Below the pieces are notes generated by a model. It was not told where the DNA came from. It ran no database searches and saw only the letters and a list, made by a program, of their open reading frames with translations. Below are positions 4,141 through 61,703 of a stretch of 64,000 nt of DNA, piece after piece; position 1 is the first letter of the stretch, and the number at the start of each line of letters is the position of its first letter. A program made the position numbers and the translations under genes. This stretch comes from Vulcanimicrobiota bacterium (lineage in GTDB: Bacteria > Vulcanimicrobiota > JAJTBE01): the NCBI GenBank assembly GCA_021107945.1, contig JAIORV010000023.1, positions 56,885-120,884 on the forward strand, in the 5' to 3' direction.

Positions 4141-5253
4141 CTAATTTATATTAATAGTCGTTCTATCCGCGAAATCCGCTCCCCGTACGACGATGTAGCC
4201 ACCGCTTCTGGTAATGGTTATATTGTTCGCCGGGTCAAACGGATCAAGGATTCTCTTGGTATTTCCACTATCTATTATCTGGATTTGCCGCCCCGGAAAA
4301 GGGAAGTCAATTGTTGTAACGCTCCCCGACTTTCTTATGTAAGCGTTTCCAACCGTATCAGGCGATTGAACGATAGTAGTGTTCCCCTGCTTTGTGACGT
4401 AAGACCTACCGAAGGGAAACGGGTGATCTATTGTGGTTCTGTCGCCCCTTTTCTCGATGATGGTCCTGTTACCTGCTCCTGCCTGGTAGACCTCGGTGCG
4501 ATCGTCATTCTGCCGGATAAAAGTGTTTCCCGGCCAGGAAAACTGGTTGATGACCACCTCGTCACCGCGTTGCGTTACCTCTGTCAGGTTCGCTCCCGGC
4601 CGCGCGAATGTGACCCTGTCCTCCGATTTCGTGACGTTGGTGTTCGCTCCCGATCCTGAGCTGTTAATATAAATGTGCCGGTAATCCTGGCTTTTCATCT
4701 TGAAAGGATTGAATGTGATTCCCCCGGACAGATCATAAAACAACCCGTCCCCAAGGTCAACACCCACCATTGACATTGGCAATGCTGAATTTCCCTCCGC
4801 CGACTCGTTCTTCCTCATACTGGTGATGGGAACCCGCAAAGCGTCAGTCATTTCAATATTGTCATATTGTTTGAGGGCTATTTCCCTTCCCTTGACAACC
4901 CCTTCGCTTTTTTCCACTTTCCCCGGCCCGGCTGAAAGGGAAAGGTTGCCCATCGCCTGTTCAAAAATCTCTTCGGGCAATGGAAAACCAGAAATGGCCG
5001 AGTTTATCCCGGCAATAGGCACGCCGCAATCAGATAATGAAACGCCCTTTGGAAGCTTGCTCTTAAACAGATTGCCCCCGGTTCTCCTGACTTTTTCAGG
5101 AAGTCCGGGAGATTCCGATTCCTTGTCGCCATGCGTAAGGCGATCTTTTGGAGTGGTTTCCTTATCGCCCGATTTGACTTCTTTTTTCTCCTTTTCTGCG
5201 GCAGGATATTTACCGGAAGGAAGCTCAAAAGATCTAACCCTGGAAATGTCCAT
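4141..5253 (-). CDS. Hypothetical protein with C-terminal beta-strand repeats
   Basis: Long ORF. AAGGAGA lies 8 nt upstream of ATG 5253. Reiterated roughly 20-aa motifs (TTIDHPFPFG / TTIDFPFPG, GNT..I). No signal peptide. Confidence 0.6.
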   Translation of the reverse strand: MDISRVRSFELPSGKYPAAEKEKKEVKSGDKETTPKDRLTHGDKESESPGLPEKVRRTGGNLFKSKLPKGVSLSDCGVPIAGINSAISGFPLPEEIFEQAMGNLSLSAGPGKVEKSEGVVKGREIALKQYDNIEMTDALRVPITSMRKNESAEGNSALPMSMVGVDLGDGLFYDLSGGITFNPFKMKSQDYRHIYINSSGSGANTNVTKSEDRVTFARPGANLTEVTQRGDEVVINQFSWPGNTFIRQNDDRTEVYQAGAGNRTIIEKRGDRTTIDHPFPFGRSYVTKQGNTTIVQSPDTVGNAYIRKSGSVTTIDFPFPGRQIQIIDSGNTKRILDPFDPANNITITRSGGYIVVRGADFADRTTININ

Positions 5254-5737
5254 GATCATTATCTCCTTTGTTTATTGGTGGCAATTTAAATATAATTTCG
5301 GGCGAATATTCGCTCAAACTAAAAATGCGTTAAAACCCATTATGATTATAATCCTTTTGAATTATGAAAACAATGCAAAGTTTGTTAAATCCATGTTAAT
5401 ATATGGCGGCTGAAATTATTTGGACAGGCTATTATTCACAACTGAGGACGCGGAGTTTGCTGAAAATCACTTTTCTCCACCGTCAATCATTAATCCCGGT
5501 TCCTGATAAAGGATCCAACACCATATCACCTGTATTTGAATATCTTCTAATTAACCGGCGTGGAAGTTCAGTAAAGAATTTGAAGAGTATTTATGTAAGG
5601 TATGAGTTAATATTGACTGAATCATAAAACATAGTAAATCTGATAAATTGTATCCGAAATCTTTTTTTAAACGCGGATATCGGTTATCCTCCGCAGACCA
5701 ATTTGGACATTAGTTTTTTGAAACACTTCTGAAATTA

Positions 5738-6235
5738 TCATCTATAGATATTCAGATTGCTTTTATATTTAGCTTTACCACCGGCAAAGAAAACAGCGGT
5801 TTGAACCATGGGAGAGGTCATTCCCAATGCCTCTTGCATGCCAAACTCGGTAATTTTACAGACTGTTCTTTCCTTACCAAGCCCCAGGAAGCCTTTTTCT
5901 TGAGTAACTTCAAATGTGGTGTTCAAATCTTTTGCCGTGTCTGTTTTGTCGGTAATTCGACCGTTGGCTAAAACATCAATTCCTTTTAAGTGAAGAGACA
6001 TTGTCTTTAAATTTTTATCCTGAGTAAAAGATGCTTCTCCCTTGAAGTTATCGCCCTTAAGGGCAACTTCCCCTTTTTCTTTGTTAAAGTCAACACCATC
6101 AACATTGTCTTGCGAAAGCATTTTTGCCGACAGAGAATCAAATTGCTTTTTCATAATCATTGCATTCTTATGAGCATTTGAATCCCTCGCCAAAGTGAAG
6201 TCATCGACTTCCCCGGTATTTACATTAATATACAT
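5738..6235 (-). CDS. Hypothetical protein (165 aa)
   Basis: ORF with AAGGTGG 5 nt upstream of ATG 6235. No recognisable motif. Confidence 0.5.
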   Translation of the reverse strand: MYINVNTGEVDDFTLARDSNAHKNAMIMKKQFDSLSAKMLSQDNVDGVDFNKEKGEVALKGDNFKGEASFTQDKNLKTMSLHLKGIDVLANGRITDKTDTAKDLNTTFEVTQEKGFLGLGKERTVCKITEFGMQEALGMTSPMVQTAVFFAGGKAKYKSNLNIYR

Positions 6236-9165: not shown

Positions 9166-9604
9166 ATGTAAACGACCTCCATTAATAATTTTCCTACCGA
9201 TTCCCCTACTTTTTTATAATTCTTGTATAATAATTAATATGTGTTATCATATGCAATTATAGAAAGGTAAAGGCTGAATGAAAACTTCCTTTGAATCGGG
9301 TTTGAATGATTTCATTCAGATTATAATTATAACATGAACAATAGTCCGGTGGCAATGCACCGTGAAGTAGTTTATTGAAACAAAGGATATGTATCCGTGG
9401 AATAGAAATGTATTTCTTAAATATTTTTGGGTACAACATTAATATACGAAATCCTGGAATATTCCAAATGAAATCAGGCTGTATTTGAAAAGTTTTTTCA
9501 ATTATTACACATCCTATATCCCCTCTCTCCGAGTTGGGGATAAAAAGATCGGAATTTTACCTGATGGTTATTTGAAATATTTCTATAGAATCAAGGAGTT
9601 TATT

Positions 9605-12600
9605 TTGAAAAAGAAATTTTCACTTTTATTATGTATTTTCTTCATTATACTTCTTCTGGCCAATGTATCATGGGCGAGTGGGCTTCATGAAACGACCAGG
9701 AGCGGTAATCTGAATAAAGCAAGACAGATCCTCATGAAAAATCCAAAACTGGTAAATAAAGAAGATAAAAACGGAAGAACCGCCTTGCATAAAGCATCTA
9801 TTCGGGGACAAAAGGAAATGGTTGAACTTCTTATTTCTTATGGTGCAAATATTAATTTGACGGATAAAGCAGGAGATACTCCCCTTATTCTTGCGACGAA
9901 AAACGGGCACCTGGAAATTGTCGAGCTTCTCCTTGCAGATCAGGGGGAAACAAAATCTGAAAAAAATATCTCTGAAATTTCTGTTCCCTGGTCGAAAACG
10001 GTTAATGATATTGTATTGAAGTCATCGGATATTAATGTGAAAAATGACCTGGGAATGACCCCTCTCCACTATGCGGCGGAAAAGGGTCATCTGGAGATAT
10101 GTAAGATTCTGCTATCAAAAAATGCAACTATTGACACAAGGGACAAAGCAGGGAATATGCCGCTGCACAGGGCGGCTTCATCCGGCAAGAAAGAAACAGT
10201 AGAGTTTCTATTATCAAAAGAGGCCGACATTAACTCAAAAAACAGAAACGGCAGAACTCCTCTTCACAAAGCGGCATATACCGGTCGCAAAGAAATATCA
10301 GAACTTCTTGTTGAGGAAGGCGCGAATATTAACGAGCCTGATGAATACGGCTGGGGTCCCTTGCACAGGGCGGTTTTCGGGGGGCGCAAAAACATAGTTG
10401 AAATGCTTCTTTATAATGAAGCTGCCACCGATCAGAAAGACAAATACGGCATGCTGCCGTTTCATTGGGTGGGATTCAACAACGACACGGATATTGCTGA
10501 GATGTTATTATCAAAAGGAATCGATGTTAACGATAAAGACGGATTCGGAAAAACTTTACTCCACAGGGCGGCTGAGAATGGATTTAGTGAACTCGTGGAA
10601 TTACTTATTGAAAAGAATGCGGATGTCGATATTGAGGACGGGCTTGGAAAAGCTCCCCTTCATATGGCGGCAAAAGAGGGAAATATTAAGGTTGCCAGGC
10701 AGCTTATTTCAAATAAAGCCAATATAAACTCAAACACCGAAATGACCCCGCTTCATGAAGCAACAACTAAAGGCAATGTTACAATGACGAATCTCCTGCT
10801 CTCAAAAGGAGCCAAGGTAAACCTGAAAGATAAAAACGATGAAACGCCGATTCAACTTGCAATTGCTCTCAAGCATGGCAAAATAGCTGAATTGCTTATT
10901 AATAAAGGAGCGGATTTGACTGTAAGAGACAGATCGGGGAGGTATCCCATTCATCAGGCAGTGGAAAATGGACTTAATAAAATTATATCACTTCTCATTA
11001 AAAAGGGAGCGAACGTTAATGTAAAAGACTATAAAAAATCAACTCCTCTTCATATAGCAGTGGCATCTGGAAAAAAGACTATTGTTTCACTTCTTATATC
11101 CTCAGGAGCCGATGTTAATGCAAGAGACGAAATCGGCGTTTCTCCGCTTCATAAAGCGACGGAAACAGATAATATAACATTAGCTGTTCTGCTTATATCA
11201 AGTGGAGCTGACATTAATAAAGGTAGTAATAACGGCAAGACCCCTCTTCATATCGCCGCAGAGAAGGGATTCAAAAAAATGGGGGCATTTTTAATTACAA
11301 AGGGGTCCAAAGTAAACAGTAAGGATACAAGAGGATGGACGCCGCTTCATTTTGCCGCCTTTGAGGGGAAAAAGGATGTTGCAGAAATACTTATTTCAAA
11401 AGGGGCATTTGTTAAAGCTCGGGACAACGACGGGTGGACTCCCTTACACGCATCCTCAATTAAGGGGCATATAAATATTGCCAAACTTCTTATATCCAAA
11501 GGTGCAAAAGTTAAGGCGAAAGACAATTCCGATGTTTCACCACTTCATCTTGCCGCGGGAAACGGGCATAAGAAGATTGTTGAATTGCTAATCTCAAAAG
11601 GAGCGATTGTAAACGCAAAAAACAAAGACGGCAAGACACCGCTACATGAAGCTGTAAACGGCGGTCATACAGGGATAGCTAAATTTCTTGTAAAGAAAAA
11701 TGCAGATATAAGGATGAAAGATACAGAAGGAACAACCCCACTTCACCAGGCTTCGGCAAATGGATATGAAGAATTGGTAAAGCTTTTCATCTTAAAGGGG
11801 GCCGATGTTAACGCCCAAAAGGAAGACGGAGTGACACCACTTGGCGAAGCCTCCGATAATGGACACAAAGAAGTCGTCAAAATGCTAATCGCAAAGGGAG
11901 CGAAAGTCAACCTGGCGGATAAAAACGGAGTTACTCCATTACATAGTGCCTCTGCAAAAGGACATGAGAATGTTGTTGAGACTCTCATATCATTCAAGGC
12001 AGATGTCAATGCAGTTGACGGAAATAAGCGAACACCACTTCATCGTGCCGCAGTCTGTGAAAATGAAAATATTGTAAAAATTCTTGTATCAAACGGCGCT
12101 AAAGTAAATGAAAAGAATAAGGAAAGTAAAACTCCTTTATACCTTGCAATTGAAGCGAACAAAGAAAATGCGGTAAAAGTCCTTCTTGAAAATGGCGCGG
12201 ATTTTAAATTGATGGATGAAGAAGAGATTTCTCCGCTCAACCTCGCCGCATATAAAGGATATACTGAAATCGTCGAGATGCTCATAGAAAAAGGCGCAAA
12301 TATCAAGGCAAAGGATAAAGTAGGAAGAACCGCACTTCACAGAGCCGCCGGTGAAGGAAACCTGGAGACAGTAAAATTGCTTTTGACAAAAGGAGCAAAT
12401 ATAAACGCAAAGGATAACGAGGGGAAAACACCGGTACACTGGGCAGCCGGCTATGGAAGCACGGATGTTTTGAAATTATTCATTGATAAGAAAGCTGAAA
12501 TTGACGTGAAAGATCAGCAGGGAATTACCCCTTTGCAATTCGCGAAAAATGAGCAACAAGAGGAGACTTCTAAGATCCTGGGAAAATACACAGCACAAAT

Positions 12601-12760
12601 TGCCGAAAAACAAAAATTGAGAATAAGAATGTTTGCAGGTTTGGTTGCAATTATCATACTGATTCTCCTTCTGGCATTCGTACTCAAAAATAAAAGGCGA
12701 AAAAAACTTGAAAAAATGCATGGAAAAGGAAATGAAAAAAATGGAAAGGTTGACAGGTAA
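9605..12760 (+). CDS. Giant ankyrin-repeat protein (about 30 ANK repeats) with an N-terminal signal peptide and a C-terminal TM anchor
   Basis: Reiterated 33-aa G.TPLH.A...G....v..Ll..GA.vn units throughout. TTG 9605 lies 6 nt after AAGGAG and gives MKKKFSLLLCIFFIILLLANVSWA. The C-terminus is FAGLVAIIILILLLAFVL followed by a basic tail. Confidence 0.85.
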   Translation: MKKKFSLLLCIFFIILLLANVSWASGLHETTRSGNLNKARQILMKNPKLVNKEDKNGRTALHKASIRGQKEMVELLISYGANINLTDKAGDTPLILATKNGHLEIVELLLADQGETKSEKNISEISVPWSKTVNDIVLKSSDINVKNDLGMTPLHYAAEKGHLEICKILLSKNATIDTRDKAGNMPLHRAASSGKKETVEFLLSKEADINSKNRNGRTPLHKAAYTGRKEISELLVEEGANINEPDEYGWGPLHRAVFGGRKNIVEMLLYNEAATDQKDKYGMLPFHWVGFNNDTDIAEMLLSKGIDVNDKDGFGKTLLHRAAENGFSELVELLIEKNADVDIEDGLGKAPLHMAAKEGNIKVARQLISNKANINSNTEMTPLHEATTKGNVTMTNLLLSKGAKVNLKDKNDETPIQLAIALKHGKIAELLINKGADLTVRDRSGRYPIHQAVENGLNKIISLLIKKGANVNVKDYKKSTPLHIAVASGKKTIVSLLISSGADVNARDEIGVSPLHKATETDNITLAVLLISSGADINKGSNNGKTPLHIAAEKGFKKMGAFLITKGSKVNSKDTRGWTPLHFAAFEGKKDVAEILISKGAFVKARDNDGWTPLHASSIKGHINIAKLLISKGAKVKAKDNSDVSPLHLAAGNGHKKIVELLISKGAIVNAKNKDGKTPLHEAVNGGHTGIAKFLVKKNADIRMKDTEGTTPLHQASANGYEELVKLFILKGADVNAQKEDGVTPLGEASDNGHKEVVKMLIAKGAKVNLADKNGVTPLHSASAKGHENVVETLISFKADVNAVDGNKRTPLHRAAVCENENIVKILVSNGAKVNEKNKESKTPLYLAIEANKENAVKVLLENGADFKLMDEEEISPLNLAAYKGYTEIVEMLIEKGANIKAKDKVGRTALHRAAGEGNLETVKLLLTKGANINAKDNEGKTPVHWAAGYGSTDVLKLFIDKKAEIDVKDQQGITPLQFAKNEQQEETSKILGKYTAQIAEKQKLRIRMFAGLVAIIILILLLAFVLKNKRRKKLEKMHGKGNEKNGKVDR

Positions 12761-24270: not shown

Positions 24271-27144
24271 ATGAGAAGATACATTGTCGCAATAATTACG
24301 CTAATTTTCCTCGTCAATGCTTTATCGCCATTTGCTTTTGCTCTTGGACAAAAGGCACGAACGGAAAAAATGGATATTTCAAGTCTTGATAAAACTTCCG
24401 ATGTTTCCGATTCCGTAGGAAAAACGACAGTATCTCAGAATGATTCAGACATAGAGAATGATAAGGATGACTCAGACTCCCAAAAGAAGAAAAGCTTCTT
24501 CGATGAGGAGAAGAAAAGAATTGAAGACCGGAAGAAAAAGAAAAACGGCAATGATGAAAATGAAGCTCCGGTTGTAAAAGAAAAGACCGAGCCCAAAGAG
24601 AAGGAAAAGAAATCGGAAGATAAACCCGAAACAGAAAAAAAGGAAGTGCCGGTAAAAAAATCCGATAGCGTTTCTGATAAGAACGAAGATGAAAAGGCGA
24701 GTTCATCAAAAGAGAATAAGCCTGATGATAATAAAAGTGAAGCTAAAAAAGAAGAAAAGCCTGTAGAAAAAGAGCAGGTCAAGAGTGTTAAAAGCGAAAA
24801 ACAGGAGGCGGAAAAAAAGGATAAACCCGCCGAGAAACCCATAAAAGTCGAAGAGAAACCAGAAGAGAAGCCGGCGGTGGTGGAGCCGAGTGACAAGTCG
24901 TCGAAAAAAGTGGAATCAAAAGAGCCTTCTCCTCCGGCTGTGGAGCAACCCAAACCCCCTGCCAAGGAAGAAGAAATTAACAACGAACTTAACCTTGACC
25001 CGGATACTGAACCGAAAGACCCCCGAGAGCCTATTGCCGATACCGGTAAAGCCGGGGACGCAAAAAAAGCAGAGAAATCTGATAAAGAAGATGTAAAAAA
25101 GGACGAAAAAGCTGAGGGGAAGGAAGTCAAGGAAGTCAAGGAAGGCGAAGAAAAGCCCAAAAAAGCTTCTCCCGGTGAAGAAAAACCCGATTTTTTGAAA
25201 AAGCCCCTTCCCGCTGAGAGAGAGAGTTCATACAAAATTACAGCCATCGAGGTCAGAGGTAATGAGCATGTCCCCACTGAGAAGATTTTATCTGTAATCA
25301 GAAGTAAAGTTGGAGACATATTGTTAAAACCCAGGCTTCGCTCCGATGTTCAATCCATATATGAAATGGGATTCTTTAATGATGTCAAGTTGGATACCCC
25401 ATATTATGCCGGCGGCATCAAGCTTGTTTACAGAGTGCAGGAGAATCCCGTAGTCAAAAAGATAACGATTCTTGGCAATAAAATTGTTTCCACCGATAAA
25501 CTCCTCGAGTTGATTCAGACAAAGGTTGGCAGTATTCTGAATATGAGAACTCTAAACGCCGATTTATCGGAGATAAATTATTACTATAACGAGGCTCTGG
25601 GTTATGAACTCAAGCCCACTCACATAAAAAATGTTAACTTCACAAGTAGTGGAGAGCTTGTACTTTCAATCAAGGAAGGCATGGTTGTAAAGCAAGTAGA
25701 TGTAACCGGCAGCACGCTTTTTCCGGAGAAAGAGATGCAAAGCCTGGTAAAGATGAAACCGGGCGAGCTTTTCAATACAAAACAGGTAAAGAAGGACAGC
25801 ACCTCCCTATCTGAGTTTTACAAGGAAGAGGGATATATCCTTGATACAATCCGCCCTCAGGTTAATTATAAGGAAGGTATTGTTTCCTACCAGATTATCG
25901 AAGCTGTGGTGGAGAATATCAGAATCGAGATATCTCCCGCAAAGGGCAGGACAAAACCCAAGACCAAGGAGTATGTTGTAATGCGCAACATCCGCACAAA
26001 GAAGGGTGAAGTTCTTCAACAGGACAAGTTGAAAAAAGATATTGACAGACTGAACAGACGTGGATATTTCTCCCGTGTAAATGTTGACCCGGAGCCCGGC
26101 AGCGAACCTGGTAAGGTAGTGTTGGTTTTCAAGCTCAAGGAGCAAAAGACCGGACTTGCAACAATCGGAGTCGGTTATGCAGGTGGAGGTTCCTCGGCTG
26201 TTCGTTCAGGAATTACAGGCGCTATATCCTTTAGCGACAAGAACCTTGGCGGAACGGGTCAGGGAGCCGGCTTATCCTGGCAGAGGGGTGTTAATATCGA
26301 TAACCTTAGCGCTTCATATTCCAACCCTGCAATAAACAAGAACCAGGATTCATTTTCCCTTTCAGTTTTCAGGCACAATTATCTTGAATTAAAACAGCCT
26401 CTGGATAATGAAATTAATAACACCAAATATGCTTTGTACGATGACAAGAGAATTGGCGGCAGTGCGGTTTATGGAAGGCGAATCACCGACGATCTGCGTC
26501 TTTTCCTGTCATTCAGACGCGAGCAGATTCAGATTTCCAGGAATCCTAATTCCGATTATGAACCTATTGGAATTTCAAAAGGAACTTTGAACGCCGCCGG
26601 TGTCGGCGCATTATATGATACAAGGAACAGCCTGTTCGATCCCACTGAGGGAGCTTATGGAGACCTTGCATTTACCTATGCAGGCGATGTCCTGAGAGGT
26701 TCCTATGATTTTAAGAAGTATCAACTGGAGTTAAGGAAATATTTTCCCATAGGCCGGAAGAAAAAATCCGCTATCGCTCTAAGGGCCTGGGGTGGAATTC
26801 TCAAGGGCGATAGTAACAAGACACCTGTAACCGAGACTTTCTATGTTGGAGGAACTGACACTATTCGAGGTTATGGCCAGAATGAATTTTTCGGCACAAG
26901 AATGATTGTGCTTAATGCAGAGTATCGTTTTCCCATTGCAGGAATCAAATATCTCAAGGGAGCGGTTTTTGCCGACGCCGGCAACGCCTGGTTCCCCGGC
27001 GACGAAAGACAAAGACTATATTCCGATGTAGGCTTGGGCTTGCGCATTGTCTATCCAACACTGGGACTCGGTGTTATAAGGGTTGACTATGCCAGCGGCG
27101 AGAACGGCGGAAGGTTCTCAGTGGGAATCGGACAAACTTTCTGA
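24271..27144 (+). CDS. bamA: Outer membrane protein assembly factor BamA with a roughly 290-aa K/E/P-rich N-terminal extension
   Basis: Signal peptide. Low-complexity region from about 24360 to 25230. POTRA-like units (ITAIEVRGNEHV.., VKKITILGNK.., VKQVDVTGST..). C-terminal beta-barrel ending ..GIGQTF. Confidence 0.9.
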   Translation: MRRYIVAIITLIFLVNALSPFAFALGQKARTEKMDISSLDKTSDVSDSVGKTTVSQNDSDIENDKDDSDSQKKKSFFDEEKKRIEDRKKKKNGNDENEAPVVKEKTEPKEKEKKSEDKPETEKKEVPVKKSDSVSDKNEDEKASSSKENKPDDNKSEAKKEEKPVEKEQVKSVKSEKQEAEKKDKPAEKPIKVEEKPEEKPAVVEPSDKSSKKVESKEPSPPAVEQPKPPAKEEEINNELNLDPDTEPKDPREPIADTGKAGDAKKAEKSDKEDVKKDEKAEGKEVKEVKEGEEKPKKASPGEEKPDFLKKPLPAERESSYKITAIEVRGNEHVPTEKILSVIRSKVGDILLKPRLRSDVQSIYEMGFFNDVKLDTPYYAGGIKLVYRVQENPVVKKITILGNKIVSTDKLLELIQTKVGSILNMRTLNADLSEINYYYNEALGYELKPTHIKNVNFTSSGELVLSIKEGMVVKQVDVTGSTLFPEKEMQSLVKMKPGELFNTKQVKKDSTSLSEFYKEEGYILDTIRPQVNYKEGIVSYQIIEAVVENIRIEISPAKGRTKPKTKEYVVMRNIRTKKGEVLQQDKLKKDIDRLNRRGYFSRVNVDPEPGSEPGKVVLVFKLKEQKTGLATIGVGYAGGGSSAVRSGITGAISFSDKNLGGTGQGAGLSWQRGVNIDNLSASYSNPAINKNQDSFSLSVFRHNYLELKQPLDNEINNTKYALYDDKRIGGSAVYGRRITDDLRLFLSFRREQIQISRNPNSDYEPIGISKGTLNAAGVGALYDTRNSLFDPTEGAYGDLAFTYAGDVLRGSYDFKKYQLELRKYFPIGRKKKSAIALRAWGGILKGDSNKTPVTETFYVGGTDTIRGYGQNEFFGTRMIVLNAEYRFPIAGIKYLKGAVFADAGNAWFPGDERQRLYSDVGLGLRIVYPTLGLGVIRVDYASGENGGRFSVGIGQTF

Positions 27145-47403: not shown

Positions 47404-48429
47404 TTATATATTATCCAGAAAATCACTGATGCAAAGCAGTTTCTTCTCTTTTTCTCCTGCAGGATCAATATTGTAGAGATCAGTTTTCCCATCTTCTTCC
47501 CGGAGAAAATATATTTTATTCTTTGAAATTCTCGGGAACCTGCTAATTTTATCAGGGGAGGTAAGTTGAGTTTCTTCTCCTGTTTCCAGATCAAATTTGG
47601 ACACCACAAAATTTTCATCGATTTTGCGATTGAAAATCAATACATTTCCAAGGGGGAATATTTCCGGTGTAAAATTACCTTCTATCTTTATTGGCTCCGT
47701 TTTTCCATTATCGAAGTCGAACAGCACTACATTAAAATTTCCCTCGCTGGAAAGAAGATTCTTATAATCAATCGACACAATAATCATTTTCTTACCAATT
47801 GGAGTGAAATCCAGGATAAATTCATCATAAGAAGCAATCTTCTTTTTACTGTTCCAGACTATATCCATCGTGTAAATATCACTCTGGTATGTATATAATA
47901 CCAGGTCTTCATCAAGCCAATTCCAGGCGCGTCCCAATCCCTCCACCTTACCGACCGCGTCAATTTTCTCATAATAAAGTAATTGCGTTTTCTCCTCGTC
48001 AAGAATAATATTCTTTATATTTTTCTCTTCCAGCTTTGCACTTTCCGGGATTATTGAAATATTTCTCAACAGGTACCCCACGCTTTTTCCTTTTTTTGAG
48101 AAATGGAAGTATTCGAGAAAAAGGACAGAGTGTTGGACGATTCCCTCAATCATCTCCTTACTCCCCTCATCCTCAATTTCCACGGCGTTCAACCCGCTTA
48201 ACACCCCGATAAATAGAAGCTTGTTTTGTGCCGGATGCCATTCCATGTGGGTGATTGAAGTTTCATGATGCTCAAAAATCTTTTTTCCCATCTCCAGATT
48301 AAATATTAATAGATCATGGTGCTCATCTTCAGATTCACTTTTTGATCTCAGCTTTACAGCGGCAAATTTCCCGTTCTGGGAGACCCTGAGATCCTGAAGT
48401 TTATATTTTGTTTCAACCTGGTTGGCCAT
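47404..48429 (-). CDS. Hypothetical beta-propeller-like protein (TolB/WD40-like repeats), AT-rich gene
   Basis: 341-aa ORF with alternating beta-strand-like repeats. No signal peptide. The family call is weak. Confidence 0.5.
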   Translation of the reverse strand: MANQVETKYKLQDLRVSQNGKFAAVKLRSKSESEDEHHDLLIFNLEMGKKIFEHHETSITHMEWHPAQNKLLFIGVLSGLNAVEIEDEGSKEMIEGIVQHSVLFLEYFHFSKKGKSVGYLLRNISIIPESAKLEEKNIKNIILDEEKTQLLYYEKIDAVGKVEGLGRAWNWLDEDLVLYTYQSDIYTMDIVWNSKKKIASYDEFILDFTPIGKKMIIVSIDYKNLLSSEGNFNVVLFDFDNGKTEPIKIEGNFTPEIFPLGNVLIFNRKIDENFVVSKFDLETGEETQLTSPDKISRFPRISKNKIYFLREEDGKTDLYNIDPAGEKEKKLLCISDFLDNI

Positions 48430-50398: not shown

Positions 50399-50586
50399 AA
50401 AGATATTTCTTTTAAGAGATAACAAAGATAACTTGGACAATTTTTCATAATGGTTTTGCTTTGTTAAACTTTTCTACCATAAGAGGTTTATCCAGGTTTT
50501 TGATGAATATAGCTCCATGCTTTGCATACAAAAGTAGAGTACAGTCTTGACGGATGGAATGCTCGAATAAAAAGGGAGGTTATCCT

Positions 50587-51480
50587 GTGAGAAAAATAGG
50601 TATCTTTTCAATAAAAGAGGATTTTGCTTACAGCTTGATTCATGAAATTAATCAATTGAATGTGAAGAATATTCGTGCTGAATTCGCATTGGTAGGAGAT
50701 ACGAAATTATTTGAAAGATCGCCATACAAACTCATTATTGACCGACTTTCTTATTATGTAAAATATTTCTCCGCTTATTTTAAAAATGCCGCTCTGACGG
50801 GGACATATGTTATAAACAATCCGTTTGCCCATGTGGGAGAAAGATTCCTGAATTACAACCATGCGAAGAAAATGGGTGTCCATGTACCCCGGACCGTTTG
50901 CCTTCCTTCCTGTCAACAACATCCCGCCTGCTCAGCGGAAGATCTCAAGAACCTTAAATATCCCCTTGACTGGGAAGAAATGACTGATTTTGTGGGATTC
51001 CCGGCAATATTGAAGCCCTATGAGGCGTTTGGATACAGGGATGTTTACAAAATCGGTAGCATTAACGAGTTGATCCAGGCATATAACGGCACCCAGCAGC
51101 AGGTGATGATCCTCCAGCAGTTCATAGATTATGATTTATTCGTAAAAGTATATGTTGTGGGTGGAAAAGATGTTCTTGTTGTAAAATACAAACCTTCAAC
51201 AAGGGAATATGTTACAGATGATGAGTGGGATAAGTCATTGCCGGGCCAAAGAATTATCGACAGCGCCAGGGAGTTTTCAAAGAAAATGGGATTTGACTTC
51301 GGAGTGATGGAATACGCCGTAAAGGATAACGCCCCATACGCCGTGAACTTCATCAACCCATCTCCCAACTGCAGGAAAGAGACCCTGGGCACGGAGAATT
51401 TTAATTGGCTTGTCAAGAAACTATCCAAACTCGCCATAAAACTGGTTCAGAGCGATGCGAAAAACAACCTGGAGTGTTAA
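50587..51480 (+). CDS. ATP-grasp fold protein
   Basis: GFPAILKPYEAFGYRDVYKI ... MILQQFIDYDLFVKVYVVGG pattern. GTG 50587 lies 7 nt after GGGAGG. Confidence 0.6.
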   Translation: MRKIGIFSIKEDFAYSLIHEINQLNVKNIRAEFALVGDTKLFERSPYKLIIDRLSYYVKYFSAYFKNAALTGTYVINNPFAHVGERFLNYNHAKKMGVHVPRTVCLPSCQQHPACSAEDLKNLKYPLDWEEMTDFVGFPAILKPYEAFGYRDVYKIGSINELIQAYNGTQQQVMILQQFIDYDLFVKVYVVGGKDVLVVKYKPSTREYVTDDEWDKSLPGQRIIDSAREFSKKMGFDFGVMEYAVKDNAPYAVNFINPSPNCRKETLGTENFNWLVKKLSKLAIKLVQSDAKNNLEC

Positions 51481-51499
51481 ATAAATAGTTGATTTAGAT

Positions 51500-52366
51500 A
51501 TGGGTATTCCTGTTTTATTTCTAATAGAATTCGATATGTTAAAAGCCATTCCCCCCTTTATAATCAAGGGGCTTTCTTTTATGTTCCTCCTCAACCTGAT
51601 ATTTGTTTCTATTACATCTATCTATTTCAAGAAAAAACTTGAAGGAAGAAAAAAAAGAATAATGCCCGCCCTGCTTTTCCTCGGAATTACCATTTTTCTG
51701 AATTTGGGATATTATGCGATAGCAAGGAATAAACTACAGAATTATATTTACAAGGTTCCTGTGCAGGACGTCCTCACACCCGATCCGTCCCCAGCAAAAA
51801 GGGACTTTTCGTACTTGAAAAAAAACCGAATTATCCGGGATGAAAGGTTTAAATCCTATTTAGCGGTTGATCAGGAAGGGGTAATCCTCTGTCTTCGCTC
51901 AGGGGGAGAGCCGCAGGTTTATGATTCTTCTTTCTATCTGACCATGCAAAAAGAAGGCAAGACATTCAACACAAAGAAAGAGATGTCGGATTACGCCCGG
52001 TTTGTCATACTTCTTTACTATTGCGAGTCGGAGCCGGTCTATATTAATTCTGCCTCATCCCTGGCACGAATATTGAAAAATCGAAATAATAAAACCCAGT
52101 GCAACCTGGGACAAAAAGTATCTCACATTATATCCACAACACGAAATAGTAAAAATAAAAACAAGCAGACCGGACCTGATGAAACCCTGAAAAAACTCGT
52201 AGCCCGGATTTCTCCGCCGAAATTTGAAAAGGACTGGGACAAAGGAGTAAGCTTCAATCTTTATACATTTTCATTTAGATATAACGAGCTTGCCCAATGG
52301 AAGTTCAAAATATTCCCCAACGGAAATATCGAGGTAGAGAAAACCATGTCGTATGTGGAGAGGTAA
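51500..52366 (+). CDS. Hypothetical membrane protein (2 N-terminal TM segments)
   Basis: ORF 19 nt after the ATP-grasp stop. The start is uncertain (51500 or 51536). Confidence 0.5.
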   Translation: MGIPVLFLIEFDMLKAIPPFIIKGLSFMFLLNLIFVSITSIYFKKKLEGRKKRIMPALLFLGITIFLNLGYYAIARNKLQNYIYKVPVQDVLTPDPSPAKRDFSYLKKNRIIRDERFKSYLAVDQEGVILCLRSGGEPQVYDSSFYLTMQKEGKTFNTKKEMSDYARFVILLYYCESEPVYINSASSLARILKNRNNKTQCNLGQKVSHIISTTRNSKNKNKQTGPDETLKKLVARISPPKFEKDWDKGVSFNLYTFSFRYNELAQWKFKIFPNGNIEVEKTMSYVER

Positions 52367-52521
52367 TTTATTACCCGAATCAAGCATTATTTCTTGAGCA
52401 CTATAAGTATTTTTGAATATCCTTCATTCTTGTTAAGATAAATTAATATTTATTATATTGACAATTCGCAAGAAATTTATTATCATACATATTGACTATT
52501 ATCACTTCATGGGGGTTAGAT

Positions 52522-55225
52522 ATGAATACAAAAAGACGCTTTTATTATTTCTCCACAATGTTTCCTGTTTTATTTATCCTCATCATGGCAACCGCAATGT
52601 CGGTTGTTTTTTTAGGCTGTTCCTCAGGGGGGGGGGGATGATACATGCAATGCTTCGATGAAGTTTCCCGATTTTGAGAGGCAGGTTTATGAAAACCAGG
52701 AAAAAACAGAAGTAACAATCGAGAAGATATTTTTAAAAACGGAAAACGGATTTATTGACATATCCCCCGACAGGATCCCCACTGAATTTTCAAACATTAA
52801 CAAGTCAAAATATATAGAATCAAAGATTGATCCCGGAAAACAAAAAGAGATTTCAGAGACACACCCGCCTGATCCTTCACTTTTCCCCGATGACATGAAG
52901 ATGTTCCAGACAATAAGACTCGGCTCTCCCGGAGCAGAATTCAGATTCGTCAATATTCACTGGGAAGAACGCGATGGGAATGAGATTACAAAACGCCCCC
53001 ATTGCTGGCTGACATACACATCCTGGGGAGAAGATGAGAGCGACATTCCCGAAGGTGCGGATGCTTTTTATGCCACTTATTTTCATATTCCCGTTCCTGT
53101 TGATAAAGCTCCCAATGAACCCGGAGCGGAGGTAACGACCGTAATTGAATCCGACAGGACGTCGCCGGGAGGCACAGTTTATAACAATCGTTATGATATA
53201 ACTTCAAAATGTTTAGATTTCAACAGCTTCATATTTACAATCGCATGTTACAGAAACGGTGAATTGAGGTGGGAGACACAACCTTCCACGGGACACATCG
53301 GAATATGGGATACGTACTGGGGAGTCGCAGGATCGGAGGACGGGGAATGGTCTTATGAAAAAAGAAGAAACGGCGGGATTTTCGACAGCGGAGGATATCC
53401 ATGCGACGTTACATACATCATTCGCAGGTTAAAATTGAAATTTCCTTTACCCGAGATTGAATACACCCCCGGTGAGGACATCACATTTGAAAACAAGATG
53501 ATCTGGAGCGAAGGAGGATTCGCCCCGGGAACCGAATCGGAGCCACAATGGAAGGTTGAAATATTCGATCCAAATTCACAAACTCCAGACATCCCCGTTG
53601 CATCATCCGACTGGCAGGACGGCAGCCTTATAAGCTGGGCGTGGGACGGCGCAGTCGCCGCTTCTGCGGGAAGTGATGCAATAAGAGGATTGAATGTCGG
53701 GAAAAAATGCGTCTTGATCCCAAGTGATAAATACCACTCATATAAATACAAAAACAGACGAAATCGAAACATCCAAAAGGACGATGATACCGTCGTTCTT
53801 ACTTATGTGATAACCGCAAACGCAATTTGTTACGGGAAGAGCGAAATAACTCCAGCAAGCGACGACGACGCCCGGTATTTCCTGAGAACGAAGAAGGATA
53901 TCTATGGTCAGATAGAGCCGGTGCTGGAAATATACGATGATGATGAAAATCTTGTTGCAACCTCAGAAGCGGAATTCCCAGAACCGCCATATCCGGGCTA
54001 TACGGCATATCCGGTGTACCCGGGAGATGTAGCGGCGGCTACGGCAGACGCAATGAGGGTTGAGACAGAATTTTTTAACATTCCAAACAACATATTCATC
54101 CTGAAGGAACCGGACAGCGTTAAAGTATTTAGAGTGATAGTAAAAGATGGTCCTATCAACGTGAACCATATTATGGTTAAAATTATGACTTCGGTTTCAG
54201 ATCCCACGGGTTTGACAATAAAAATTAATAAAACCGGCACGCCTGGACGATTCAAGGGGAACATAAGAGTGGGACCTGTGGGCGATCCTGCTACTAACCA
54301 ACTTAAGGTAGAAACAAAACGAGAAAAGTCGTTCTCTTATTTCGACTTCACTTCTGACTCGAATATTGGAAATTATATAGACTCAGCACAATTTGTAATA
54401 ATGGAACAAATTTTGGGATTCACTAAGCTTGGTGGAGTCCTTTTATTTCCGGTAAAAGAGAGTAGTGGTTATTCGCCGGTTGCCCATCCGACAAAAGATG
54501 CTTTAAAAGCCGCTGGATATGAAGACTTGATTGTAGAATATGATTCTAAAAAAGCATGGCTTCGGATAAAGAACCAGGCTTCCCACTTTTATTATTCGGG
54601 ACATGGTGCATATAAGTGGGGATCAATACAAGTGAATACAGATGACGATGGAAATGGTATCTATGCATCAGCTGGCACTGATTCAGGGGATACAATAAGT
54701 CCCGAGGACTGGAATGATAATATAAAACTGGCAATTTTTGCCTGTTGTTCCGTATTTGACATTGGCAACTTTAACGGTTGGAAAGATTTCAAGAACCATC
54801 AAAGTCCGGGATTAAGGTGGGTAAAGGTAAGGGGAGAAGCTGTTCTCCTTGGTTATAATGCATGGTCGCCCTTAGCCACTGAAGACGAAAAACCTGATTT
54901 GGGAATCCTGAAGGAATATTACTTACTATTACCCTCGGGGCGGGAAGCAACATCGCAGGAGCAGGTAATGGCCTGGATGAATGCCAACGCCGACTATCCC
55001 CACCACTTGCAGTCAGATAATGCCTGCGCAATAGGGGGGGATTGGTATTATTTTATAAGATACAAAAGGTTAAAAAAACCACAGAACACTCGTGAGGTTT
55101 ATCATGCAAAAAGGCGCATATATAAAGTGCATAAGGACTACTGGGACAAAAGGAACGTGAAGGGATTCGAGGGAATTCCCACAAGTGGAAAAATACTCAT
55201 TAGGATACTTCAAGACAAGTATTAA
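52522..55225 (+). pseudogene. Surface lipoprotein with a C-terminal gingipain-like (clan CD) cysteine peptidase domain. The reading frame is broken at a G11 tract (possible phase-variable OFF state or homopolymer error).
   Basis: ATG 52522 encodes MNTKRRFYYFSTMFPVLFILIMATAMSVVFLGCSSGGGG then a stop. A G10 or G13 tract would fuse it in frame to the 855-aa ORF 52658..55225. The His/Cys dyad context is HFYYSGHGAYKWG ... KLAIFACCSVFDIG. Confidence 0.7.
52627..52637 (+). repeat. Homopolymeric G11 tract
   Basis: The longest homopolymer I saw in the window. It lies 2 codons after the lipobox Cys. Confidence 0.95.
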
Positions 55226-55272
55226 TAAATGACAACAAAATGGATATTAAATAGTTTTCAGGAGGATGTGTA

Positions 55273-56355
55273 ATGAAGAATAAAAATGTAATGATATTTT
55301 TATTTATAGTGCTAATTTCTGTATTTATCATTTACTTACCTGCAAATGCCGAGGATGCGAATCCCATGCCACTTAAGGGTGATCCTGTTTTTGATAAGGC
55401 TACCTTTTATAATGAAAACAGCCAATGGGATAGAGCAATTGAGGAATATCGGAAAGTAATTGATACATATCCAGGAACAGAATTAGAAGCAACAGCTCGT
55501 TTTGCAATCATCGATTGCTATTGCAGGAAAGGGAATCTTGATGAATCAGAGCGCCACGCACTCCTAAATGAATACCAGGTTATAATCGATCGCTTCCCGG
55601 ATACGCGATATTCCTTTGTAGCTAGACTGGAGTTGATTTCTCGTGGTGATCCTCAAGATCCCCAATGTTACGATGCCTGGCTCCATGGTGTTGACGAATT
55701 AATCCTTGAGCTAGGAGGAAAAAGTATCTTCAAAATAATAAGGAAGAAACGGGATGAAGATGATGAAGATTCTGAAAAAGGATTTCATGTTTCATCTGTG
55801 GTTCCAAAATATCGGAATGACCTTGCAAACCTCTATATGAATATTGCTACTGATTTTATCAGCACTTTTAAAGATAATAAAAATGGGTTTAGAATACTAA
55901 GATTTGTGCGGGAGAGTTTCCCAAAATTTACATGGAGTTGTCCACTTGAACACATCAAGGAATATCTAATCTGGAAGCATCGTCCCATCGACTGGAGTAA
56001 ATATAAAAAAGACAAATTCCCGCCGAAAATTTATTCTGTACATCCCCGGAACAATCAGAGAATTGGAAACAGAAAGCCTAAAATAAAGGTGAAACTTACA
56101 GACGGTGATATTGCGCAGATGCAGGTTGATCTGAGCAAGACTGAGTTTAAACTTGACGGGAAAGATATAACCGATAAGATGACGGTAAAATCCCACATAA
56201 AAATGACCGTCAAGCCGGGGAAGATATTCGAGAAAATTATCCTGGAATACCGCCCTGACGAAAAACTCTCAAAAGGAAAACATACGATATACATAAAAGC
56301 TTACGACAATGGAAACAGATATCTGGAAAAAAGTTGGAGTTTTTATGTGAAGTAG
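55273..56355 (+). CDS. Secreted TPR/YbgF-like protein with a C-terminal Ig-like domain
   Basis: Signal peptide. TPR-like helices (WDRAIEEYRKVIDTYPGTELEATARFAI..). AGGAGG lies 7 nt upstream. Confidence 0.65.
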   Translation: MKNKNVMIFLFIVLISVFIIYLPANAEDANPMPLKGDPVFDKATFYNENSQWDRAIEEYRKVIDTYPGTELEATARFAIIDCYCRKGNLDESERHALLNEYQVIIDRFPDTRYSFVARLELISRGDPQDPQCYDAWLHGVDELILELGGKSIFKIIRKKRDEDDEDSEKGFHVSSVVPKYRNDLANLYMNIATDFISTFKDNKNGFRILRFVRESFPKFTWSCPLEHIKEYLIWKHRPIDWSKYKKDKFPPKIYSVHPRNNQRIGNRKPKIKVKLTDGDIAQMQVDLSKTEFKLDGKDITDKMTVKSHIKMTVKPGKIFEKIILEYRPDEKLSKGKHTIYIKAYDNGNRYLEKSWSFYVK

Positions 56356-56420
56356 AAAGTACTCACATTTCGCACATGTGAATTTCTTGAGAAGTATCAG
56401 AATATTTTTCAAGTGTTTCA

Positions 56421-56458
56421 AGGTGATAACAGGTGTTTTTCAGGTGATAACAAGTGTT
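56421..56458 (+). repeat. Two 17-nt direct repeats AGGTGATAACA(G/A)GTGTT, 21-nt period
   Basis: Lie within a 470-nt non-coding region that also holds four perfect hairpins (56477-56496, 56531-56546, 56561-56576, 56614-56633). Confidence 0.7.
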
Positions 56459-56827
56459 ATAAGGGGTTTAGGACAGCACCACAATTTATTGTGGTGAATT
56501 GGAGTGCAAACCCCACCACTACAGCGTCCTAACCACTTCAGTGGTTTATATCATCAAAAAAACCGTTGAAACGGTTAAATTGAGGTGGGAGGTAGGTTTT
56601 ATAGGCTTCTAACCACCCGATTAAAATCGGGTGTTGTCTTAAAAACTCGAAAAGTTTATAAATATTGTGAAATATGGCTATAAGGCTATTAAAGAATATT
56701 TCTCAATCGCATTTTTGACAAATTGAGTGATTTAATTAAAAGATATCAGGTGTGCGAAATCTAAAAAGACGTAATCCTGAACTTGTTTCAGGGCTTCAGT
56801 GTTCTCTGCGGTGAACAGTAACAATCC

Positions 56828-57814: not shown

Positions 57815-57959
57815 GATTCATCTCCGTATATAAGCTGTTTATAGTTATTAGTGATATTTTTTACCGCAAAGACCACAAAGGAAAATCGGATATTTTCATT
57901 GTTATAATAGGGACTTCCCTGAACCTGCTCAATATCCTGTAAACCTTTTTCGCGGACAC

Positions 57960-58101
57960 TTGCAAAAATTACGCCAGGGTGTATAATGAAATTGACCGGT
58001 GTATTCCTCCTGGCTTCGCTACGCTACGCCATACGGAATACACCAGGAAGGCATACCCTACGACTCTCATACAAACTGGAACATAAAATGGGGGCAGGTC
58101 A
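57960..58101 (+). mobile_element. IS right-end remnant (142 nt), copy 1
   Basis: 1 mismatch in 142 nt versus 61197-61338. It includes the last codons of an rve-type transposase (..CKNYA(R/K)V), an internal 10-bp inverted repeat, and a terminal ..CAGGTCA. Confidence 0.75.
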
Positions 58102-58160
58102 CCTGATCTCATCGAAAGCTTTTAACATTGAAGTTGGAATCATTTAGTGGGAGACAAATT

Positions 58161-60969: not shown

Positions 60970-61338
60970 CTGCGTAGCTGCCGGGTTGGCACCATGTTCA
61001 TCGAGCCTGGCAGCCCGTGGGAGAATGGTTACATCGAGAGTTTTAACGGTAAGCTGCGGGACGAGTGTCTCAATGGCGAATTGTTCCTCAGTAGAACCGA
61101 GGCAAAATATGTGGTAGAGCGTTGGCGCCAGGATTACAATCATCATCGGCCCCATAGCCGTTTGGGCTGGCAGACGCCTGCTTCTTTTGCGGCCTCTTGC
61201 AAAAATTACGCCAAGGTGTATAATGAAATTGACCGGTGTATTCCTCCTGGCTTCGCTACGCTACGCCATACGGAATACACCAGGAAGGCATACCCTACGA
61301 CTCTCATACAAACTGGAACATAAAATGGGGGCAGGTCA
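60970..61338 (+). mobile_element. Truncated rve-type (IS3/IS481-like) DDE transposase 3' fragment plus IS right end, copy 2
   Basis: Encodes ..[26 protein letters not shown]...[22 protein letters not shown]. No N-terminal part. The last 142 nt duplicate 57960-58101. Confidence 0.8.
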
Positions 61339-61339
61339 A

Positions 61340-61392
61340 CTGTAGGAGAGGCTTCCAGCCTCGATTTTCGTGGCAAGATGCCACTCCTACAA
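61340..61392 (+). repeat. 53-nt element with 8-bp terminal inverted repeats (TGTAGGAG...CTCCTACA), copy 1
   Basis: Internal hairpins AGGC-TTCCA-GCCT and TGGCA-AGA-TGCCA. Repeated at 61819-61871 with 2 mismatches. Abuts the IS end. Confidence 0.8.
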
Positions 61393-61703
61393 ATAATACC
61401 ACTGAATTAAGGTCAGGAGTTACGCATTTTTAAGTGGTTTTTGCTGTGAAAACAAAGACAATTCATCCGACAACTTACAACCGACGACTGTCATCCTTTT
61501 ATCGGGACGGGGACGTCCCTCCTACAAATAAAGCCACCGAATTAAGGTCAGGAGTTACGCATTTTCAAGTGGTTTTTGCTGTGAAAACAATAACAATACA
61601 TCCGACAACTTACAACCGACGACTTTCGTCCTTTTATCGGGACGGGGACGTCCCTCCTACAAATAAAGCCACTGAATTAAGCTCAGGGATTATGCATTTT
61701 TAA
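61384..61703 (+). repeat. Tandem repeat, 135-nt unit, about 2.4 copies
   Basis: CTCCTAC anchors at 61384, 61519 and 61654. Each unit ends with TATCGGGACGGGGACGTCCCTCCTACAAATAA. Confidence 0.9.

Follow-up and report, generated by a model that had tools for sequence, protein, structure and literature searches.

The 64-kb stretch of Vulcanimicrobiota DNA analysed here (contig JAIORV010000023.1, 41.7% G+C; hereafter the window) contains a predicted lipoprotein gene that is divided, shortly after its signal peptide, by an uninterrupted run of 11 G residues (G11). A preliminary description of this sequence had proposed that the run is a phase-variable switch captured in the OFF state, and what it said of the sequence itself (the G11 run, the signal peptide, the +1 frame of the downstream body, the repair by G10 or G13, and the protein motifs) all holds on re-reading. 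The features of the locus are the following:

52458–52486, + strand: promoter-like site TTGACA-17-TATCAT, a consensus match only (11/12 positions), 36 nucleotides (nt) upstream of the signal-peptide start

52507–52524, + strand: purine-rich ribosome-binding stretch CATGGGGGTTAGAT and start codon ATG 52522; one base differs in the nearest relative, L005

52522–52641, + strand: signal-peptide open reading frame (ORF) of 39 amino acids (aa), the OFF-state product, with lipobox VFLG-C33, SSGGGG and TGA

52616–55225, + strand: reading frame of the mature protein, in the +1 frame as counted from the signal peptide; gene predictions begin at ATG 52658 (855 aa)

52627–52637, + strand: G11 homopolymer tract, the proposed slipped-strand switch, inside a Gly tether and two codons past the Cys that is predicted to be lipidated

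52658–53900, + strand: N-terminal region of the body (residues 1–415), predicted to be all-β and common only to the close orthologues P0003, P0029, and P0033

54335–55222, + strand: C-terminal domain (residues ~560–855), a putative clan-CD-like cysteine peptidase with a conserved core

Translation from ATG 52522 yields MNTKRRFYYFSTMFPVLFILIMATAMSVVFLGC-SSGGGG and ends at the TGA stop at 52639–52641. Judged by its sequence, the start of this 39-aa ORF is a lipoprotein signal peptide and a predicted substrate of signal peptidase II (SPase II), as Cys33 and its surroundings satisfy the PROSITE PS00013 lipobox rule and three of the first seven residues are basic (K4, R5, and R6). The 855-aa frame is open back only to 52616, because 52613–52615 is TAG. 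When tract lengths from G8 to G15 were constructed in silico, only G10 and G13 fused the two ORFs (into proteins of 900 and 901 aa, respectively), and G16 does likewise by the period of three, so that the tract lies, as had been supposed, where changes in its length would switch expression. The fused product would read ..FLGCSSGGG(G)DDTCNASMKFPDFERQ.., with a post-lipobox stretch of ..FLGCSSGGG(G)DDTCNASMKFPDF.. and ..SSGGGDDTCNASMK.. as the junction peptide of the full-length lipoprotein.

The tract is the sole run of G or C longer than 7 in the window, for which base composition predicts ~0.003 runs of 11 or more, and GGG is the rarest Gly codon among the window's genes (17%); codon usage does not account for the tract. 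The promoter-like site is the best sigma-70 consensus match within 52200–56600, and the ribosome-binding stretch is kept in L005 although the signal-peptide codons that follow it have strongly diverged. Both elements precede the signal-peptide ORF and neither precedes ATG 52658, ahead of which direct reading found no purine-rich or Shine–Dalgarno (SD)-like stretch. A separate start for the 855-aa body was therefore rejected; its product would, in addition, be without a signal peptide. Within the signal-peptide codons lies a terminator-like hairpin (52587–52608, eight pairs) followed by T7 (to 52612), and this element (52587–52612) is probably there by chance. We also considered the hairpin as a stimulator of slippage and rejected it, since 19 nt separate it from the tract that follows and it is not kept in L005.

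A word-indexed search with the 855-aa ORF returned no match besides the protein itself and a single-protein scan of genome contigs returned no relatives; 169 relatives at E ≤ 1e-3 came from an exhaustive HMMER search, and one locus, L007, from a second scan of genome contigs. Many of the full-length relatives start with a lipoprotein signal peptide and, behind it, a linker rich in Gly and Ser (..FSGCGSGGGGSS, ..SSGCGGGADP, and ..LAGCGGGETP, among others). In P0029 and P0033, the signal peptide, lipobox, linker, and opening of the domain (..IGPF(K/V)RQ..) are all in a single frame, and the +1 frame of the window aligns with these two proteins from upstream of M1 (..DDTCNASMKFPDFERQVYENQEK..). 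The residues before M1 and the first ~350 residues after it align with the post-lipobox part of P0029, P0033, and P0003. P0033 is encoded in L004, a metagenome-assembled genome (MAG; GCA_021287065.1) labelled "Firmicutes bacterium", where it is preceded by genes 61% and 39% identical to the two that precede the window locus (50554–52366, + strand; 308 aa, weakly ATP-grasp-like, and 288 aa), and it is therefore a syntenic orthologue. L005, too, has the C-terminal end of the 288-aa gene ahead of its tract. Since homologues have all these parts, from the signal peptide and lipobox through the Gly linker to the N-terminal domain, in a single frame, the two window ORFs go back to one lipoprotein gene that is now divided by the tract, as the preliminary description had taken it.

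Three additional contigs encode precisely the same 855-aa protein, and all of them read G11. L001 (ERZ26872897) is 99.93% identical to the window over 19 kb and represents a second strain, with 14 single-nucleotide polymorphisms (SNPs), none of them within the lipoprotein gene; L002 (SRR15668619) and L003 (SRR32473240) are identical to the window. Together with the window this makes 4/4 contigs with G11, from at least three data sets, two strains, and different pipelines (an NCBI genome, an ENA metaSPAdes-style assembly, and two Logan assemblies). Since a look-up with the exact product can find OFF products only, we repeated it with the adjoining upstream 288-aa gene, which is blind to the state of the tract, and recovered the same contigs, each with the 855-aa neighbour. 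G11 is the consensus in each available assembly of the species, and a random assembly error is therefore unlikely. Among metagenome contigs, a flank pattern allowing G8–G16 gave 0 matches, and an alignment search with the N-terminus gave 0 relatives, so that these contigs added no further length variants from the species.

The 5′ DNA was read for all reachable family members, which comprise 12 lineages. Eight of these (41–66% GC) carry a G8–G14 run within ~15 codons of the lipobox Cys, which is in frame (ON) in four and out of frame (OFF) in the other four; the lengths seen are G8, G9, G10, G11 (three times), G12, and G14. The individual loci are:

Window: 41.7% GC; G11, two codons past Cys; OFF

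L005 (ERZ2433807; ~76–85% nucleotide identity to the window): 41% GC; G11 with the same flanks; OFF

L004: 44.6% GC; G14, following Cys-Ser; ON

L007 (Vulcanimicrobiota MAG): 63.6% GC; G12, 11 codons past Cys; OFF

L010: 58.6% GC; G9, one codon past Cys; OFF

L011 (GCA_013328875.1): 61.8% GC; G11, nine codons past Cys; ON

L012 (GCA_022839105.1): 63.7% GC; G10, immediately past Cys; ON

L013: 65.7% GC; G8, immediately past Cys; ON

L008/L009: 45–46% GC; interrupted GGAGGGGGAGGC; no tract

L006: 40.7% GC; no repeat and no tract

L015: 58.1% GC; no repeat; signal-peptide ORF and body in different frames, broken away from any repeat

L014 (JGI 3300040736, P0017), 1257–1285: 37.5% GC; no G run; perfect (CGTTCTC)x4.1 in the signal-peptide codons

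Seven of the eight loci with a tract have no other run of G or C of at least 8; L012 has three, the tract included. One tract-bearing lineage is labelled Vulcanimicrobiota and one "Firmicutes". Recurrence of this sort, with a repeat that stays at a single functional site and differs in length and register between lineages, is the hallmark of a contingency locus and the best evidence here for a switch. The comparison of orthologous loci, which the preliminary description had suggested, found the tract at the same place in diverged relatives and in both ON and OFF registers; its presence there in lineages whose proteins are only 25–38% identical argues that it is maintained. In L014, a ninth lineage with a repeat, the ATG behind a good ribosome-binding site reads in a different frame from the lipobox and body; a heptamer count of five or of two would bring them together.

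Over the 173 codons that can be aligned between the window and L005, the ratio of nonsynonymous to synonymous substitution rates (dN/dS) is 0.148 (dS 1.16, dN 0.17). This value indicates purifying selection through most of the divergence of the two and excludes an ancestral fixed frameshift. The 855 codons are intact and every family-invariant residue is present in the window copy, and by these sequence measures the window gene is not an old pseudogene.

Based on these observations, we think it probable that the tract is a reversible slipped-strand ON/OFF switch of a clan-CD-like lipoprotein gene that was captured OFF. The gene would encode one lipoprotein of ~900 aa, consisting of a Sec/SPase II signal peptide, lipidated Cys33, a Gly tether, an all-β N-terminal region, and a His/Cys peptidase-like domain, with the tether encoded by the G homopolymer. 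Homopolymers of the length of G11 slip in replication (slipped-strand mispairing), G or C runs being long enough for this from about 8–9. A change of ±3 nt would add or remove one Gly in the flexible linker, which could tolerate it, so that the G run may persist, and a change of ±1 or ±2 nt would separate the signal peptide from the mature protein. At G11, translation from ATG 52522 would stop after 39 codons; because the 855-codon body has neither a signal peptide nor an evident ribosome-binding site, the lipoprotein would not be made, and the OFF tract may also lower expression of the downstream partner gene described below. G10 or G13 would restore the lipoprotein. What the assemblies contain would then be the OFF allele, as the prevailing state of a heritable contingency switch. 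The sequences show the anatomy, an intact ORF under selection, and a tract that recurs in both registers among relatives; a high rate of change in tract length in the organism, protease activity of the domain, and the final location of the lipoprotein are inferences.

Several observations speak against such a switch. The fused version is absent from a 15-billion-protein collection, by a search of ~5.8 billion clustered proteins, and the four consensus assemblies of the species show no variation in tract length, all being G11, including by the tract-blind look-up; phase variation within the species, as the preliminary description envisaged it, finds no support in them. L005, the nearest relative, has G11 with flanks identical to those of the window (TCA-G11-ATGATACATGCA), an out-of-frame deletion of 475 nt (window 52712–53186 missing; junction at L005 722), and an end that is unrelated past residue 350 (low-complexity sequence, L005 1241–1273). 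L007, which is also OFF, has two extra frame changes and a truncated C-terminus, and two of the four OFF copies (L005 and L007) may be dead genes. In the high-GC relatives, the G8–G10 runs may partly reflect codon bias, and Gly-rich tethers after the lipobox are common in lipoproteins. The contigs of L005 and L007 were at low coverage (2.6x and 4.8x), and their lesions may be real decay of OFF-locked copies or faults of assembly; L005 may be a chimeric contig rather than a case of true decay.

If the window gene had instead suffered a plain, recent loss-of-function frameshift, it would be a pseudogene in the making, and its G run a by-product of the tether and a mutational hot spot that serves no adaptive switching. 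That OFF is the only state seen in the species agrees with such a loss, as do the deletion and truncation that accompany G11 in L005, the extra frame changes of L007, the frameshift of L015 away from any repeat, and the frequency with which family members are found broken. We nevertheless consider it unlikely, given the 855 intact codons with each conserved residue in place and the dN/dS of 0.15. In addition, in genomes of 41–45% GC the composition of a tether would not by itself lead one to expect G11–G14 made of the least-used Gly codon, the tract persists at the same place in relatives as distant as those noted above (25–38% identity), and at the coverage of the L005 and L007 contigs indels and chimeras are likely. 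The preliminary description had taken a tract fixed at 11, with further decay in relatives, as the mark of a dead pseudogene; L005 fits that picture, which is offset by the dN/dS and by the ON copies elsewhere. A sequencing or assembly artefact, with a true tract of G10 or G13 in an ordinary and intact gene, is highly improbable. Long G runs are indeed error-prone on Illumina instruments and in oligonucleotide synthesis (PMC9187656), and consensus callers can fix a wrong length; however, the four contigs with their different pipelines, data sets, and strains all agree on G11, the independent species L005 has G11 as well, and the protein collection holds no in-frame version. The plain assembly error that the preliminary description had named as an alternative is countered by this agreement.

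The remaining explanation is recoding, in which G11 would be fixed and functional and a set fraction of full-length protein would come from it, either through G10/G13 transcripts that RNA polymerase produces by slipping or through a +1 slip of the ribosome on GGG-G, so that constitutive leakiness would take the place of heritable ON/OFF states. Such a site could explain why the window and L005 share the exact G11 and identical flanks at a dS of ~1.2 and with very different signal-peptide codons, why all assemblies of the species have G11, and why the body is under purifying selection despite an OFF genotype. A further point in its favour is that bacteria are known to show transcriptional slippage on long homopolymers (PMC1088944), which is expected on any such tract whatever the mechanism at the DNA level. 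We regard recoding as quite unlikely, since a conserved recoding site should not vary as this one does among the other members, which are in frame at G14, G11, G10, and G8 or out of frame at G12 and G9. G11 is also the commonest length (3/8), so that sharing it is not improbable by chance, and in L005, with its further lesions, a function of G11 is not evident. No conserved stimulatory RNA structure was found, as the hairpin at 52587–52608 is not shared by L005, and GGA would have to re-pair on GAU for a +1 slip to take place while the stop codon occupies the A site. Ribosomal frameshifting at GGA-TGA was rejected as a candidate, because after a −1 slip the ribosome would meet a stop 7 codons on and re-pairing is impossible after a +1 slip from GGA.

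Beyond the slipped-strand switch at the window locus, we suggest more tentatively that the repeat could be an ancient, selectively maintained feature of an undescribed family of caspase-like lipoproteins and their tetratricopeptide repeat (TPR) partner, placed where signal peptide and tether meet and extending across phylum-level distances in uncultured environmental diderms, with the heptamer as its substitute in one lineage. If true, an envelope protease would be under strong fluctuating selection outside animal hosts, for which recognition by phages or predators, or the cost of a shared proteolytic good, would be candidate causes.

The C-terminal domain contains H649 within HFYYSGHGAYKWG (codon 54602–54604) and, 48 residues further on, C697 within KLAIFACCSVFDIG (codon 54746–54748), which belong to the motifs S647-G-H649-G650 (54596–54607) and A695-C-C697-S698 (54740–54751). 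Among 98 aligned domains, H649 is conserved in 97% and C697 in 99%, and the positions conserved at 85–100% are G620, E622, N639-Q-A, Y645, S647-G-H649-G650, W685, C697 (A-x-C-S), D701, P717-G, W721, L731-G-Y-N, W773, A776-N, and C790. A His that precedes a Cys, each at the end of a hydrophobic β-strand, is the arrangement of clan CD. In an AlphaFold2 (AF2) model of the domain built from 36 sequences (predicted local distance difference test, pLDDT, 89.8; predicted template modelling score, pTM, 0.91), the His lies two residues past strand 84–88 and the Cys two past strand 132–136 (model numbering). The His/Cys dyad of the preliminary description is thus real, conserved, and placed as in clan CD in a confident model. 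The fold comparison was less clear: the top Foldseek matches in the PDB all belong to clan CD and are led by the separases 5mz6, 9hma, and 5u1t, all of them weak (E ~0.03, probability 0.8–0.92, TMq 0.34–0.38), and none of the matches, the next of which include MARTX cysteine protease domain (CPD; 3gcd) and caspase-1, reaches E ≤ 1e-3.

By sequence, the 855-aa protein matches nothing in Pfam (even at E ≤ 10), NCBIfam, or the PDB, and a profile search of PDB sequences gave a single VNAR match, by chance. Peptidase_C25 (PF01364) was found weakly in 4/36 relatives when trimmed domains were searched (best E 1.2e-5) and in 0/28 full-length relatives scanned, in which the four weak matches were not reproduced. 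The term "gingipain-like", which the preliminary description had used, is too specific in view of these searches and of the separases as best fold matches. The commonest Pfam match was DUF6345 (PF19872), found in 16/36 relatives over the His-to-Cys core (profile positions ~50–180) but always below threshold (best 23.4 bits, in P0002, vs a gathering cut-off of 26.9), and Raptor_N, which is caspase-like, gave a weak match in one or two relatives. Judged by these profile matches, DUF6345, whose function is undescribed, is at most a sister family of the window domain. The model and the conserved positions suggest that the C-terminal domain is probably a cysteine peptidase of a new, or at least unnamed, clan-CD-like family and not a gingipain.

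The domain shares with clan CD (separase C50, caspases C14, MARTX/TcdB CPD C80, gingipains C25, and legumain C13) the His-then-Cys order, the placement of the β-strands, the His-Gly and Ala-x-Cys motifs, and the spacing of 48 residues. It differs from the clan in having no significant sequence match and weak fold matches, as well as an extra NQA before the His strand, LGYN, W773-x2-AN, and C790 in "NACAI". Gingipains carry a C-terminal domain for the type IX secretion system, whereas the window protein has no match to the families of type IX C-terminal sorting domains in Pfam and NCBIfam and would be exported by its lipoprotein signal peptide instead. For the N-terminal 428 residues, an AF2 model from a four-sequence alignment had a pLDDT of 41 and no assignable fold; several relatives have FlgD-type immunoglobulin (Ig) domains or bacterial TSP3 repeats in their N-terminal part. 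The closest C-terminal homologues, P0002 and P0013 (JGI contigs of 1.8 and 3.1 kb), agree in each of the first 21 residues (MVRALANLRDSGNDITYDKST) and differ from one another thereafter, as might paralogues that share a 5′ segment, or assemblies that both broke at the same repeat.

The window encodes BamA (an Omp85 protein with POTRA domains) at 24271–27144, and the organism therefore has an outer membrane. For a lipoprotein of such a diderm, the surface location given in the preliminary description is one of two options, the other being the periplasmic side. Downstream of the lipoprotein gene lies a gene for a secreted TPR/BamD-like protein, whose matches to TPR_6, YfiO, and TIGR03302 are all below cut-offs. 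Homologues of this partner (24–34% identity) lie directly downstream of the family member in four other lineages, from which we conclude that the lipoprotein and the TPR protein form a conserved pair. The partner genes are:

55273–56355, + strand: window partner, 360 aa, with a Sec signal peptide, 48 nt past the lipoprotein gene

4851–5879: homologue in L008

3801–4910: homologue in L014

4479–5897: homologue in L011

3195–3668: homologue in L015

The P0026 locus has genes for a RimK-type ATP-grasp protein and a Tricorn_N/PD40 β-propeller, as are also found near the window locus (50554–51480 and 47404–48429, respectively).

The anatomy of the locus has precedents. In Bifidobacterium breve, the pilus genes bbr_0113a/b and bbr_1889a/b are switched by replication slippage at an intragenic G tract (PMC9187656). 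As in the window, a secretion signal and the body of an envelope protein are in two ORFs that are split by G11/G12, the second without a start of its own. The B. breve tract is kept across the genus at lengths of 11–12, the reference genome is OFF, and cultures are a mix of G11 and G12 (PMC9187656). The two systems differ in that the B. breve product is an LPXTG pilin of a Gram-positive organism, vs a lipoprotein with a peptidase-like domain here; switching was measured in B. breve, whereas the window locus is known from sequence alone; and the tract of B. breve is found within one genus, whereas that of the window family recurs over phylum-level distances.

A second precedent comes from the contingency genes of Neisseria (pilC, lgtA, pglA, and others), whose repeats include G9–20 in pilC, lgtA, and other genes, CTTCT in 7–21 copies in Opa, and the heptamer CAAACAC in pglE (PMC5953494). 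There too, homopolymers of at least 9 in the 5′ coding region of envelope genes give ON/OFF switching by frameshift (PMC5953494), and the heptamer of L014 and the G tracts of the family mirror the Neisseria classes of repeat. The Neisseria organisms are host-restricted pathogens or commensals and have many such loci per genome, in unrelated proteins, whereas we examined one locus in uncultured environmental bacteria. Both the pilC tract and the CTCTT repeats of Opa reportedly lie in the signal-peptide region (Jonsson 1991; Stern 1986). An envelope protease that is switched by a homopolymer in its coding sequence is described for NalP of Neisseria meningitidis, where the processing of surface proteins becomes phase-variable as a result (PMC3723659). 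The enzyme differs from the window protein in being a subtilisin-like serine-protease autotransporter with a poly-C tract, as opposed to a His/Cys clan-CD-like domain with no autotransporter barrel. NalP is lipidated. Since the anatomy of the window locus matches that of B. breve and Neisseria, and in outline that of NalP, the mechanism would be of a known kind.

To our knowledge, nearly all documented cases of repeat-driven phase variation come from host-adapted pathogens or from a small number of commensals. The earlier remark that such a locus would be unusual for an environmental lineage is partly true, and is tempered by the same anatomy in a gut commensal (PMC9187656) and by the proposal that 5′ homopolymer tracts are a general prokaryotic device (PMC2831843). 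What is new here is the protein family, its uncultured environmental hosts, and the fact that the repeat recurs in lineages that are phylogenetically very far apart; no general principle is changed. The loci provide a set in which stochastic switching in environmental communities could be measured from metagenomic reads, and the family, with its conserved TPR partner, is a candidate for a new branch among the His/Cys clan-CD-like peptidases.

There is also a point of annotation. Gene callers report the genes of this family as "hypothetical proteins" of 800–900 aa without a signal, or start them late. In L011 (1377–4445), P0008 is called 208 codons late although G11 is in frame; in L010 (121–3043), P0012 is called from after the out-of-frame G9; and in L014, P0017 is begun ~85 codons late. 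As public gene calls miss the signal peptide in the window, L010, L011, and L014, database entries conceal that the family is one of lipoproteins.

Elsewhere in the window, a 135-bp tandem repeat at 61384–61700 (2.3 copies, 92% match) holds 10 of the 14 SNPs between the window and L001. L001 aligns to this repeat in two registers, so that either its copy number or its sequence differs between the strains. A dispersed intergenic repeat of ~162 bp is present at 57945–58105, beside a T2SS-F gene, and at 61181–61342, beside an HNH gene (~96% identity). Finally, 9485–12760 encodes a protein of 1091 aa that consists almost entirely of ankyrin repeats (at least 19 Ank matches, E 1e-219), a size that is unusual for a bacterium.

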